From Eledone cirrhosa (lineage: Eukaryota): a DNA stretch of 64,000 bases. The notes below the pieces were generated by a model. It saw only the letters and a program-made list of their open reading frames with translations. It had not been told where the DNA came from and did not search any database. The stretch covers positions 128,464,001 through 128,528,000 of the forward strand of contig OZ024740.1 of assembly GCA_964016885.1 (NCBI GenBank). The letters are read 5' to 3'. Each line of letters begins with the position of its first letter. Position 1 is the stretch's first letter. The position numbers and the translations under genes are program-made. Positions 51,920-57,770 of this stretch are shown piece after piece.

Positions 51920-53022
51920 CATCCAAATAATGGCCAATGGTCGTATCGTCATTAACTCATCAACCAGCTCCTACTTGTCTCTGGTCTAAAAGGCCGTCTC
52001 GTCTCTGCTTTTTCTATCACTTTTACAGTAGTCTCCGCTCGTCTACTATTATACTGTTCCAACTCACATATCTCTTCTCTTTCTGTCACATTATTCCTCA
52101 TCAAGCTGCGCACGTTCTAGCACGAGCAGTCTTTCTACCCACAACAATTACCTTCTATTATCTTTCATTGCACATTGTTTCCAGAACCTTCGTTTTCAAC
52201 TGTTTAAGTGTGATATTAACAGCGATGATTTATCTATATGTCATAGGCACAAATCGTTCCTCTAGATTGAATTTATTAACAACATTTCTCTTATAATAGC
52301 TACTTTTGTCCATCGGTGATTTGTGTTCAAATCCTGCCGAATCAACTTTCTCCTTTAGCCCTACAGACGCCAAAATATCAGCTATACACTGAGATATTCA
52401 AGCAGTTCTACCTTTCCACTAAACAGTTTCGGTTATTTTGCCATTGTGAAACTCGAAACAACTCATGTATTATGCTCCATTATGCTTGTAGTAAAATCTC
52501 GAAAAATCCTGTTTTGAAGCAGTTTATATTTGCGTTTGGAAGGCAATATACTACACGTTAAAAACCAACGCATTTCAGGACATCGACACCTTAAATGTAG
52601 TTATTCCTCTACGAAAATGTATGCTCTATTTGCACGAGTAGGTCAAACGTTAGTGTTAAGAGTTAGAGGTGAGAATTGCCGTCGTTCTTTAAACAACATT
52701 AGATTGTAATAAAAAAGCAGCATTGAAGAACAACGCTGTTGATATTTGTTAACGGTATTGAAGTTAACGAGTTTGACTTGCTCAGCGTTACTATTAGCGA
52801 CCTTGGTGTTAACAAATTCATATCATCAAAAACAAAAACCATCGCAGGGATTGTGTGATAACCGTCACAGTTAATAATAAAACAACCAGCAACAGTGTAA
52901 ATGATTGACGTGAAGATTAAGAGAGATTGGTGTTGCTGTTAACAAGACAACTAACTACAACATTCACTTTAAAGTGGGTTATGCGCATATTTAATTAACA
53001 ATATTACGAATAACAATAGTAA

Positions 53023-53063
53023 TGAACTGGGTTATTGCTGGCCTTGTGCCTAAAGTAGAAACA
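53023..53063 (+). mobile_element. Extremely 5'-truncated SINE 3' tail with 23-bp TSD
   Basis: ..CTGGGTTATTGCTGGCCTTGTGCCTAAAGTAGAAAC lies between copies of AATATTACGAATAACAATAGTAA at 53000-53022 and 53064-53086. Confidence 0.8.
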
Positions 53064-54498
53064 AATATTACGAATAACAATAGTAAACTCAACTGCAGCA
53101 ACAACAGCAAAAACAACAGAAAATTGAAGTCTGTAATTCTTATTGCAACTAACAAGACAATGTACAACAATCTTGGTTACAATCTGTTTCATAGTCGTAA
53201 TAACACCATCATGTATACTGTCACAGAATTCATCACCATTTCCCACAATCAATATAAAAAATAATTAAATATATAAACGAATCAAGAATCGTAATTTCAA
53301 ATTAAATGGAGAGAAAGAAAAACAATCTACTCTAATGTCTAAACCTTTATTTAAGTATAACAAATTGTTTTGTTGTAAGTAACACATCATTTGAAACATG
53401 TCTCAACGTGAGTTCTAATATCAACATTCGAAAGTAGTTCCATACATTTATAACCCGCTAAATAAACGGATATTATTTGATGACACTTTTACGATCTAGA
53501 GCAATTTCAGTTAAGTTTTCAGTCATTAATCTTAGACCTACTTTCCATAGAGATATGAGTATTTATTTTACTTTGGTTACAGTTTTGACATTTAGCCAGA
53601 ATATTGACATTAAATAAAGAGCCGAAATATCAAACGTAAACGGTGATAAAGCCGAAAGTGTGTCTGATTGATTGTTCAGTTCGCTCTGGAGAAATAGATA
53701 ACATTCTAAGAGCGAGCTAATAAAAACATATCGAGTCATTAATGCACTTCGGTTAATACTCGATTCAATGGGCAATAAATAAATCAAAACGACATTAAAC
53801 TGTCCTTAACAATTACTCGACCGTACTGAATTTATGGAACAGGTCACCTGGTAATCCTCTAATTAATCTGATTGTATTACGGAAAATGATGAAACTAACC
53901 ACCAACAAAGGTAATCTGCCGTATCAAGGTCAGGTCACAGAAAATGCACAGTTAGATGCAAGAATGGCTAAATGGCTAATCTGCCTATATAGCTTGCCTT
54001 CCTGATGTTGCATACAAAGTAGCATTGGCAATTGTTTCTATACGTTAAAGAGATGAAAGGCAGAGGTATCAGGATCAAGTTTATCTCTCATCCCCCAAGA
54101 AGTCAATAAAATCAGCGAGGATTAAATCATCCTCCTGAATTAGGGCTCGTGCTAAAAGTAGGATTTACTAATATAGACTTTGAATATTTTATATTATTTA
54201 GATGCAGCCGTTTACGTTTTCTGTTTAACACTACTGAAATCCTTCCGATTTCAAAAATATTAATTGCAATTGAATATATGCTGGGGTCGATTTAATTGAA
54301 AATATATTCATGCATGAGATACAAAAACCTTAAGTTTAACAATAATAATATCATAATCATTATCATCAACGTCATCAACGTCGTCGTCAGAGCCACTGTC
54401 ATCATCATCATCATCATCATCATCATCATAGTCATCACCAAGTGCGTGTGTATGTATGCATATATATATATATATATATATATTATATATATATATAT

Positions 54499-54594
54499 AC
54501 GTTATTCCGGGTTGAATCGGAGGTAACCACAGTAAGTAAGGTACTCAATACATTGCAGTTCTAGTCCTGTAGAATCTCATCTATATTAAAACTA
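54499..54594 (-). mobile_element. Isolated tail fragment related to the palindrome-plus-tail elements
   Basis: Unique ~95 bp inside (TA)n, containing GTATTGAGTAC (minus, 54541-54551) as in family 1 tails. Confidence 0.45.
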
Positions 54595-54832
54595 ATATAT
54601 ATATATATATATATATATATATATATATATATATATATATATATATATATATATATATATATATATATATATATATATATATATATATGTGTGTGTGTGT
54701 GTGTGTGTGTATGTACGAAATAATAATTTCTACATACACAGCTGGAGAATCAAAATATTTTCTTTATTGATTAATACGCAATAGATCGTGGTGCTCAGTC
54801 TAGTGGAGTAATGTAATTCATGTTAATTAGAG

Positions 54833-55015
54833 GGCGGTGAATTGGCAGTATCGGTGGAGGGTCGGACGCCATGCTTTCCAGCATAGTTATGTCCCTTTAC
54901 GATCTGAGTTCAAATCCCGCCGAGGTTGACTTTGCCTTTCATCCTTACGGGGTCGATAAAGTAAAGTACCAGTAATGCACTGGGTAATTGCTGGTCTTGT
55001 GCCTAAAGTAGAAAC
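54833..55015 (+). mobile_element. tRNA-derived SINE with 9-bp TSD; central part resembles the Meta/MESC SINE domain
   Basis: A box TGGCAGTATCGG, B box GAGTTCAAATC, core GCCTTTCATCCTTACGGGGTCGATAAA. AATTAGAGG lies at 54825-33 and 55016-24. Confidence 0.9.
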
Positions 55016-56252
55016 AATTAGAGGTAGATTTGACACAACCTAATTCAAAATAATGACGTATACGAAACCATATATGATAGGTTAATGTATAGAAAACATA
55101 CAATATATAGTTTCAATGATAGCACTTCAAACTGTGTGCATATCGCAGCTACGTCAGTCTCGGTGTAAAAACTGTATTTCAGAATTATTATTCATATGCA
55201 TACAACTTTCTTAATACGATACAGACTTAGGTGAATTGGATCACAGCTTAAAATACAACCAATGAGAAGGATTGTATGTTTATTATGCATAACCATATTG
55301 AACGTGGTTCCATATCCGCCTTTAATTGATTGTAAGTTTAAACGTATGCTGGCTGATACTAGTAAGAACATTGCGAATTTCAGAGGACAGTAAATAAACT
55401 CAAGATTGGATTGAAGAATGTGTTCATTGTGAGATTTAAATGTGAAACACAGAAGGATTGAAGAGATGAGTAAAGGCAATTACATTTAGAGGTTGGTGTC
55501 ATTGAAGTCGTACACAGCTTGCTAGTTCAGAAAAACAGAATCCGTAGTATAAATGTCCTAAGTAGCAGACAAAAGCAGGTTAGCGGCTGTAGAATATTGG
55601 TGAACCAAGAAACCCGATGGACGTCTGGTGATGATATGCAACTAACCTCTTAGATATTTCGACAGTATTCTATCAGTTGTCATGTTTAAATTTAAATAGT
55701 ATGGACGGTAAATTTAAGATTTTGTGGACGTGGTGATATAGCTAATTTTTTGAAATGTATTAAGAGGTCATTAAAATTGTGAAATGCAGCGGTTAAAATA
55801 GTTTTTAAGTGTTAATATGTAATGAAGCAAAGAGCAATATTGTGTTTGTGATGAATGTATTAGTTTTGTATTAGTGTTGTTAATGGAAATTAGGCTGTCA
55901 AGTTCGTACTGGGAATTTGAGGCCACAGGTGTAAATTTAATTTGAATGTGGATGACTACTCTGTGCAATCAATTAAAGAATAAAATGTGTGATATTTTCT
56001 ATGTAAGAGCAAGTATTGCAAAAGATTGTAGCTAGAATGTCATTACTGTAGATAAAAAAGCGTGTAAGATACATAAACAAACCTTGATAGGCATAACAGA
56101 TAATATAATGTAGGTCATAGAGAGCTCAATGAGCTCGCACTGCAATGGAATATCTAAAAGAAACTGCTGAGCTAAGAAATTATAGACACAGTGGCCCCGC
56201 TGGAATAATTGAACTTGTTGTTAAGAAATTAAACACACAACATTATTATGCT

Positions 56253-56434
56253 CGGTGGATTGGCAGTATCGGTAGAGAGTCGGAAGCCATGCTTTCCAGC
56301 TTATTTACGTCCCTTTATGATCTGAGTTCAAATCCCGCCGAGGTTGACTTTGCCTTTCATCCTTACGGGGTCGATAAAATAAAGTACCAGTAATGCACTG
56401 GGTAATTGCTGGCCTTGTGTCTAAAGTAGAAACA
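56253..56434 (+). mobile_element. tRNA-derived SINE with 11-bp TSD
   Basis: Same family. ATTATTATGCT lies at 56242-52 and 56435-45. Confidence 0.9.
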
Positions 56435-57770
56435 ATTATTATGCTATTTAGTGAAAGCAAGACTTCTATAGTAAAGATAAACTATTTGTCGAACCGAATC
56501 CATTACGTATTTTTAATTCCCAGTTGGAACCATCTTTCTACTCATAACTTTGCTAATACCCTTCTTATGGAATCAGAAACGTCATAACTCTACTTTACCA
56601 CTCCTCTTTGCTATAATTATTAGGCTCCATGCCAATATAAGAAAGCCTTATTATAGGTGGCGGCCACTCAATCATTTAACATCTGTGTAATGATAAGAAG
56701 CAAAAGTAAAATAAAATCAAACCCCCCCAAAAAACAAAAAAAACTCCAAACAGACATATCGATTAATCAAGTTTAGTGTGAACAGCTATCGATGTCGATT
56801 CGACTCGACGGCAAATTGCTATCGAGTCGTGTGTGGAGTGGTAAGGGTTGTAGCTGTAGTTGTTGTTGTTTTTGAAGATGATGAAAGGGAGGTGGTGTAT
56901 GATAATGGTGTTGATGATATAGCTGTTGCTAATACTTTTCTTCACTACATGATTATCTTCAAGAGTAAAGGCAAGATTTTGACGGGTCTTATCGGTTCCA
57001 CGTATAAAAATAAAACGGGGCGTGAAGAAGATATATGTGTTATTTTTGTTTAACATCATGTCAACTCCCAATTGAGCAGACATATAATCAAAGACGTTCC
57101 ATCCTCGTCCAACCTACCTCTTTAGAAGTTACTTGGTATATGTTTTTAAATGTAACATTTCCTTATTTAAAAATGTAAGCTATGATTTGAGGGAGATTTA
57201 GGTACTATTTCTAGCAGAAAAACGCCGTTGTAGAGCAACGCTCCTCGGCCGTTGGTCCCGGAAATGAAGTGTTTCTGAAGTGGTCGCTAGGGGTTCCGGG
57301 AGAAACAATGATAAATAAGCTAATGGTATATAATAATTACATGGAAGGTTCCCTGAGGCATACAAACTATTTCAAGAGTTCCACAAGAGTAAACAGATTG
57401 CAAAACACTGATGTAGAAACTCATTTGTTGGTACATAGGCTCTCACGTCAGTTAGAATACTCTCGTCTGTATGTGTGTGTTGTGTGATAAAGATGTGTAA
57501 CAGGGAGTGAAGTAAATGAGAAAATTCAAATCAGAAAATAAGATAGAGAGAAAGAAAGTTAAAAAGGAGAGAAAAGGATAGAAAAGGAGAGACAAAAATA
57601 AAAATAAAGAGAATGCATGTATATTCTTGTGAAAGAAAAAAGGGAGAGGATGCAAACGTGTATGTGTTAAAGAGAGACAATACGATCGCTTGTATGTGTA
57701 ACAAAAACACAGGATGACAAAGAGAGAAAGTGAGAGAGATAGAGATAGAGATAGATAGATAGAGAGATAG

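Follow-up and report, generated by a model that had tools for sequence, protein, structure and literature searches.

A SINE of Eledone cirrhosa and a candidate Tx1-like partner with a similar predicted 3' hairpin

Six young copies of a short interspersed element (SINE) lie in a 64,000-nucleotide stretch of Eledone cirrhosa DNA (assembly GCA_964016885.1, contig OZ024740.1, positions 128,464,001 to 128,528,000 of the forward strand; here called the window), and the last 24 nt of this SINE resemble the 3' ends of five Tx1-like long interspersed elements (LINEs) of the same window. Because the same predicted hairpin stands at the same distance from the end in both, the SINE likely borrows the Tx1 copying enzyme, and we favour, with a probability of about 0.65, the reading that the ORF2 protein (ORF2p; ORF, open reading frame) of a Tx1 lineage recognises this hairpin and mobilised the SINE in trans. 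Such a partnership had been put forward in an original prediction made from the sequence alone, on the grounds of a similar 3' end, a common target preference and a tail-only insertion. All the SINE and Tx1 sequences quoted there are present, and the target-site duplications (TSDs) start as was claimed. The similarity of the tails holds in both anchored and blind tests and is joined by a covarying hairpin that the prediction had missed; the two other arguments proved not to be diagnostic, so that a Tx1-group partner stands as the best explanation through the tail comparison.

The common 3' end

When the six SINE and five Tx1 ends were aligned with MAFFT, all 11 fell into register with the junction, without a gap, over their last 24 nt. 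In anchored, ungapped comparisons the identity between SINE and Tx1 was 14-16/24 in 10 of 10 cases (shuffle p 1.5e-4 to 4.3e-3), while the ends of the LINEs of restriction-like endonuclease (RLE) type and of the CR1-like LINE reached 7-10/24 in 6 of 6 (p 0.22-0.88), the CR1-like end scoring 9/24. The anchored p values were obtained with two of the six SINE copies, which count as one observation since all belong to one family.

For the blind test, a matrix was built from four of the five Tx1 ends (the fifth, a near duplicate, was left out) and from no SINE, and 127,952 positions were ranked with it. The top five were the Tx1 ends themselves, and the six SINE ends ranked 7-16, interspersed with four unrelated sites and with a motif of the Tx1 5' untranslated region (UTR); leave-one-out matrices placed them at 6-19. 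Control matrices made from RLE and CR1 ends gave rank 6,457 or worse in all five registers. Most of the signal resides in the upstream 11-nt hairpin half, which alone ranks five SINE copies at 22 and the sixth at 143; base composition is not the main signal, because the A-rich tail half alone ranks 1,296-5,128.

The 11-nt core common to SINE and Tx1 is predicted to form a hairpin in which three pairs enclose the loop CUUGU, or CCUGU at a single Tx1 end, and which lies 16 nt above the junction, or 17 nt at a single Tx1 end. It is part of the minimum-energy fold of 5/5 Tx1 ends and of three of the five SINE tails folded, and its three inner pairs are kept in 33/33 cells of the 11 ends. In the middle position all Tx1 ends have C-G and the SINE has G-C (once G-U), while the outer pair is G-C or A-U depending on the Tx1 subfamily, which makes two independent double changes, one between Tx1 and SINE and one within Tx1. 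Since the stem pairs hold despite these base swaps, the two mismatches that adjoin the core in the comparison of the original prediction are compensatory. CTTGT occurs at 133 sites; at 15 of them it is enclosed by a stem of at least three Watson-Crick pairs, and ten of these are SINE or Tx1 elements.

Tx1 subfamilies diverge upstream of the hairpin, and the SINE therefore shares what Tx1 conserves, minus AATAAA: it retains the loop, the stem geometry, the spacing and GAAA. Its 3' end reads ...GAAACA in 6/6 copies, carries no tail repeat of its own and is directly adjoined by the TSD or flank, and the junction base is identical in all six. The tail motif quoted in the prediction is thus recovered at the end of every copy, with one base changed in the two ending at 55016 and 56434 and with no tail repeat; the change gives a U-G closing pair in the copy at 54834..55016 and a G-U second pair in that at 56253..56434. 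A 3' sequence in register with the junction and a predicted stem-loop with compensatory changes, two marks of a stringent SINE/LINE pair, are both present.

The elements and their insertion sites

The features on which the comparison draws are collected in Table 1.

Table 1. Positions of the SINE copies, LINEs and related motifs in the window
Feature	Position	Strand	Details
SINE, full length	54834..55016	+	A-box-like 54843-54854; B-box-like 54908-54917; tail loop 54996-55000; TSD 8-9 bp, AATTAGAGG at 54825/55016
SINE, full length	56253..56434	+	tail loop 56414-56418; 11-bp TSD 56242-56252 / 56435-56445, ATTATTATGCT at 56242/56435
SINE, full length	51740..51919	-	12-bp TSD, ATTATTTGGATG at 51931/51739 (minus strand)
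SINE, full length	41122..41307	-	in (ATT)n tract between two RLE-type LINEs
SINE, 5'-truncated, tail only	53023..53063	+	41-bp insert; 23-bp direct repeat 53000-53022 / 53064-53086
SINE, 5'-truncated	13995..14142	+	42-bp tandem duplication in tail
Tx1-like 3' end	8614..8637	+	stem GCC/GGC; loop 8617-8621; AATAAA, then ATC/ATT repeats (ATCATCATT)
Tx1-like 3' end	24546..24570	-	loop-to-junction spacing one base longer
Tx1-like LINE, full length	27445..33478	-	ORF2 27708-31127, open; 3' hairpin 27458-27468, stem ACC/GGT
Tx1-like LINE, full length	33503..39389	-	ORF2 interrupted
Tx1-like LINE, other subfamily, 5'-truncated	57774..58678	-	loop CCTGT; flanking ATCT/TC repeats; 11-bp direct repeat
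SINE-tail-like motif in Tx1-like 5' UTR	39214..39237	-	18-19/24; then ATT-like run
Same motif, second 5' UTR copy (72% identical)	27231..27254	-	17-18/24
RLE-type (Dong/R4-like) LINEs, two	39428-41064 and 41348-44835	+	AAT/TAA repeats after 3' ends, polarity opposite to SINE
CR1-like LINE	45300..47375	+	(ATT)n after 3' end; different hairpin, 6-nt loop

Full-length SINE copies measure 181-186 bp, and the copies are 88-93% identical to each other. By the usual consensus, A and B boxes are both present in 4/4 full-length copies, three of which lack an internal TTTT; TSDs flank four of the six copies, and one further copy lies in a microsatellite. Short and non-coding, with A and B boxes, TSDs and 5' truncation, the element shares these features with tRNA-derived SINEs (SINE2). 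ARAGORN found no tRNA in its head, the ends of which pair with each other in the predicted fold, and Rfam returned no match over 54700-56500 at E<=5. The SINE presumably resembles the octopus tRNA-Deu/Nin-type and OR2 SINEs, a resemblance that stops short of established identity with any named family. Between tail and TSD, no terminal short repeat was found in the four TSD-bearing copies; one present in the RNA could be hidden as microhomology.

The tail-only insertion, which the prediction had read as evidence of the priming point and hence of the partner, does exist as a 41-bp insert with a 23-bp repeat; a reading as 46 bp with an 18-bp TSD is just as good, because the five bases AGTAA that close the 23-bp TSD precede the insert sequence within the SINE too. 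As a pointer to the partner it fails, since target-primed reverse transcription by LINEs of any kind should yield 5'-truncated copies. At the copy 13995..14142 a TSD was sought and none was found; its duplicated 42-bp tail (14047-14142) resumes within the A run directly beneath the hairpin, and slippage at initiation is a possible cause. Four older, degraded relatives of the SINE lie at 14468-14584 (+), 52301-52393 (+), 54076-54166 (+) and 59014-59126 (-), with nhmmer E values of 1e-11 to 1.6, and the one near 54.1 kb keeps a tail-like end (17/24).

Among the Tx1-like LINEs, the copy at 27445..33478 has an ORF2 of 1139 aa counted from the first Met, with apurinic endonuclease (APE), reverse transcriptase (RT) and zinc-finger domains (Pfam Exo_endo_phos, RVT_1, zf-RVT), and an ORF1 that is spread over two frames, with a CX2CX4HX4C knuckle visible in the translation. 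An ORF2 that combines an APE endonuclease, an RT and a zinc motif at the C-terminus, beside a separate ORF1, is the domain arrangement of the Tx1 clade. Only one of 12 ORF2 homologues carries a name, a coral 'Transposon TX1' protein (309 bits), and names are no phylogeny; in a separate search human L1 ORF2p scored 179 bits and R2 78 bits. These scores would fit a place near Tx1, and on such sequence comparisons we call the LINE Tx1-like. No poly(A) follows any of the five 3' ends. The end at 8614-8637, on which the original prediction had based its comparison, is indeed succeeded by ATC/ATT repeats.

The copy at 33503..39389 is 94.6% identical to that at 27445..33478 over ORF2 and 3' UTR, while their 5' UTRs and ORF1 differ; the two ORF1 proteins are only ~50-58% identical, and an exchange of 5' modules is the likely cause. 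An ORF1 segment (25689-26832) is inverted inside the Tx1-like element 24546-27404, between the 3' part of ORF2 and a different 5' UTR, which may reflect twin priming or rearrangement. Positions 1-8637 form a chimeric Tx1-like array in which one subfamily (to 3843, without its 3' end) is fused directly to the ORF1 of another. Another type of Tx1 5' UTR, at ~33295-33385 (-), seems to form three hairpins; the loop of one is UUCG, and its arms are similar to those of the Tx1 3' hairpin. Copies within Tx1-like subfamilies are 86-95% identical, so that the age comparison which the prediction had proposed as a check shows overlapping ages of SINE and LINE.

The SINE TSDs, 8-23 bp long, start with ATT-like bases, which are target-derived because they are found in the left TSD copy. 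At the four TSD-proven sites outside microsatellites, 3/24 bases deviate from ATTATT (P 2e-8 against the window background). Four of the five Tx1-like 3' ends and 3/3 intact 5' ends adjoin (ATT)n, a kind of target preference common in the Tx1 clade; the Tx1 end at 57774 is the best match to the SINE among them and yet sits in an ATCT/TC tract. As predicted, the SINE at 41122-41307 lies in (ATT)n, and its sense polarity is that of the Tx1-like ends. This polarity excludes the RLE-type LINEs and does not exclude the CR1-like element. The claim of a common target preference is therefore right as to the ATT preference and the exclusion of RLE-type LINEs, and loses its force in that the CR1-like element also uses (ATT)n and one Tx1 end does not.

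The setting is animal-type repetitive DNA of 41% GC with long AT microsatellites, and its repeats comprise two RLE-type LINEs, one CR1-like LINE, the five Tx1-like 3' ends and the six young SINE copies, a mix that matches the octopus repeat classes in PMC13282606 and PMC8967140. Between 24515 and 44857, three Tx1-like elements (-), two RLE-type LINEs (+) and one SINE (-) are stacked with ATT/AAT tracts between them; the microsatellite has the appearance of an insertion sink, of which two LINE classes use opposite strands. Elsewhere, 48762-49393 and 49732-50363 form a 632-bp inverted duplication of 99.8% identity with flanking TA tracts, which may be a recent inversion, a foldback element or an assembly artefact. 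Palindromic elements resembling miniature inverted-repeat transposable elements lie at 10119-10327, 16672-17492, 24253-24429, 47396-47644 and 63599-63777; the third and the last are 97% identical and both lie beside (TA)n.

Points against the Tx1 partnership and competing explanations

Several observations weigh against a Tx1 partner. The 24-nt span was picked after inspection of the data, extending it to 40 nt adds merely 4-7 identities in 16, and the match is loose and shorter than the roughly 50-100 nt that published SINE/LINE pairs share (PMC3747384, PMC3472496, PMC1636434). In unanchored local alignment only 2/15 comparisons between SINE and Tx1 gave p<0.05, and because of this weakness the case is carried by the anchored and blind tests. 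The hairpin was read from the same sequences on which it is tested, its stem is short (3-4 bp), the z-scores of the folds (-2.9 to +0.4) are modest, the covariation amounts to two independent events only, and the two full-length copies with a G-U-forming change each have another predicted fold. The best non-SINE match to the tail in the window is the 5' UTR motif, above any 3' end. Target sites differ in kind, five of the six SINEs occupying short ATT-like sites and four of the five Tx1 ends lying beside (ATT)n tracts, and the lengths of the TSDs are as compatible with RTE as with L1/Tx1 (published ranges are 7-18 bp for the L1 clade and 7-15 bp for RTE; PMC6007223). Finally, the non-Tx1 ends compared were the three of the window, two RLE-type and one CR1-like, and the CR1-like element has (ATT)n of the same polarity as the SINE.

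These last points bear on the possibility that the partner is an RTE, L2 or CR1 family outside the window, that the ATT preference arises from a short repeat tail pairing with the target, and that the likeness to Tx1 is due to chance or convergence. CR1/L2 and RTE predominate among known pairs (PMC3747384), Ceph-SINEs of cephalopods contain RTE-derived parts (PMC5786205), and RTE, CR1 and L1-Tx1 count 13 recently active families each in Octopus vulgaris (PMC13282606); TSDs of 8-12 bp would also be compatible with RTE. We nevertheless regard this explanation as unlikely: the CR1-like end differs from the SINE in sequence and loop, a variable repeat tail of its own is found in no SINE copy, and a stemmed CTTGT would fall in register by chance at a rate of ~1e-4 (five unrelated sites in 127,952, three registers). 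The T run near position -10 that is the signature of RTE occurs at one of four SINE sites, too few to decide. The CR1-like copy at 45300..47375, considered as the partner itself, was rejected on its mismatching tail, and no TSD was found at its ends.

The tail could instead be an old Tx1-derived relic, the present copies being mobilised by another LINE or through relaxed recognition. The ~35% divergence of the SINE tail from every Tx1 end in the window, the stem weakened in two of six copies and the degraded tails of the four older relics would suit such a history; but both weakening changes still give G-U pairs, the junction is fixed in all copies, and an open Tx1 ORF2 and overlapping ages are at hand, which makes this reading quite improbable. 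We give slightly less credence still to an origin of the tail in the Tx1 5' UTR motif by template switching, or to a binding of the same hairpin by ORF2p at both RNA ends. The motif matches the SINE tail at 17-19/24 and has the same G-C stem pair; a check named in the original prediction, whether another LINE sequence fits the tail better, thus came out in favour of Tx1 as regards the three other LINE ends of the window and was surpassed, at 18-19/24, by this motif of Tx1 itself. LINE 5' UTR pieces do occur in SINE bodies, known for RTE and Vingi only (PMC5786205). The remainder of the 5' UTR is, though, unrelated to the SINE body in 8/8 tests (p 0.13-0.83), the predicted fold there puts the motif bases into a different, covarying UTR hairpin, and the third Tx1 5' UTR of the window has no such motif. 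The same eight tests led us to reject the converse idea that the 5' UTR is a captured SINE; the motif could be a relic 3' end that became enclosed in a tandem array, an additional binding site, or a coincidence.

Least probable of all, and by our estimate very much so, are the RLE-type LINEs that flank the SINE copy at 41122. They share one microsatellite locus with it, and among the active LINE classes of O. vulgaris Dong-R4 is the commonest (PMC13282606), but their polarity is opposite, and their tails match at 7-10/24 with matrix ranks of 12,858 or worse; both window copies were largely rejected on polarity and tail sequence.

Proposed mechanism and relation to known systems

If a Tx1-lineage ORF2p mobilised the SINE, the course of events can be modelled on the eel element UnaL2, in which a pentaloop hairpin is required and is sufficient in trans (PMC1636434). 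The SINE would be transcribed by RNA polymerase III (Pol III), and transcripts would run beyond the tail, since three copies have no TTTT downstream for the first 75-186 nt and one has none within 400 nt; AATAAA would be dispensable because a Pol III transcript would not need it. ORF2p would bind the hairpin, its endonuclease would nick an ATT-like site, and reverse transcription would start at a fixed 16 nt below the loop, priming probably being aided by AUU bases of the RNA that pair with the nicked strand. The fixed SINE junction suggests such a measured, internal initiation. The direct donor of the tail is probably a Tx1 subfamily whose 3' end lies outside the window, as all five Tx1 ends have C-G where the SINE has G-C.

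A broader proposal, which we advance tentatively and at somewhat less than even odds, is that Tx1 here practises stringent, poly(A)-independent recognition, in which ORF2p would use the CUUGU pentaloop hairpin as a ruler and begin reverse transcription 16 nt below it, whichever microsatellite a subfamily targets. A SINE of tRNA type would copy only hairpin and spacing, and it would have no predecessor with a tail of Tx1 type in the literature searched. Stringent RNA recognition in an animal Tx1 would, if true, be relevant to the question of whether stringency is ancestral in the L1 group. The finding defines a minimal 24-nt cis element that is amenable to mutation of loop, stem and spacing, and the window also supplies an open ORF2. 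If the reading is true and the host an octopus, a partner that drove part of a very large expansion of SINEs would be named for an abundant SINE family; SINEs make up 11.6% of the O. vulgaris genome (PMC13282606).

The literature search returned neither a SINE-Tx1 pair from an octopus or other mollusc nor a stem-loop at a Tx1 3' end; repeat databases and subscription papers, outside its scope, may already contain the SINE or its partner. The accessible parts of Kojima 2018 (PMC5786205) do not mention Tx1 or octopus, and those of PMC4758252, PMC5804259, PMC10294476 and PMC5753468 contain no SINE-Tx1 pair. In Ohshima's table of 58 SINE/LINE pairs with a shared tail, three are of the L1 clade and none is Tx1 (PMC3747384).

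The window resembles octopus genomes with tRNA-Deu/Nin-type and OR2 SINEs (PMC8967140, PMC13282606, PMC4758252) in combining a short tRNA-type SINE with Tx1-like, Dong/R4-like and CR1-like LINEs and long AT microsatellites. Its Tx1 elements are like Kibi and Koshi, Tx1-type LINEs that reside in microsatellites (PMC4494074), but the targets of those are (TC)n and (TTC)n, compared with (ATT)n for four of five ends here and ATCT/TC for one. Judged by its sequence, the SINE appears to work like one of a stringent SINE/LINE pair of the UnaSINE/UnaL2 type, in which a 3' hairpin with a 5-nt loop is recognised by the LINE protein and the tail drives trans-mobilisation (Nomura 2006, PMC1636434), an analogy on which our model is built; UnaL2, however, belongs to the L2 clade, has a ~60-nt tail, a GGAUA loop and an element-encoded (UGUAA)n, and was demonstrated experimentally; the present pair is proposed from sequence.

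Closer in clade are ZmSINE2 and ZmSINE3 with LINE1-1_ZM, and SINEX-3_CR with L1-1_CR, where an L1-clade 3' hairpin with a compensated variable stem (established for the maize pairs) and a conserved loop is shared with the SINE (PMC3472496, PMC3747384). Those pairs involve plant and algal L1, share ~50-80 nt and end in T or A runs; the pair described here involves an animal Tx1-like LINE, ~24 nt and ATT targets. A SINE-Tx1 pairing as such has a precedent in SINEU/Tx1-Mar of crocodilians (Kojima 2015, PMC4494074), which was argued from shared insertion sites only, and a shared tail is new among the papers found. As in that case, a LINE of Tx1 type is the candidate mobiliser, with a shared target preference and overlapping ages. 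SINEU carries U1/U2 snRNA sequence at its head and poly(A) at its tail, and that study found no LINE with the same 3' end; in the window, no Rfam match to such a head appeared over 54700-56500 and no SINE copy has poly(A). Unlike SINEU, the present SINE has Pol III-type boxes in its head and a predicted hairpin in common with Tx1.

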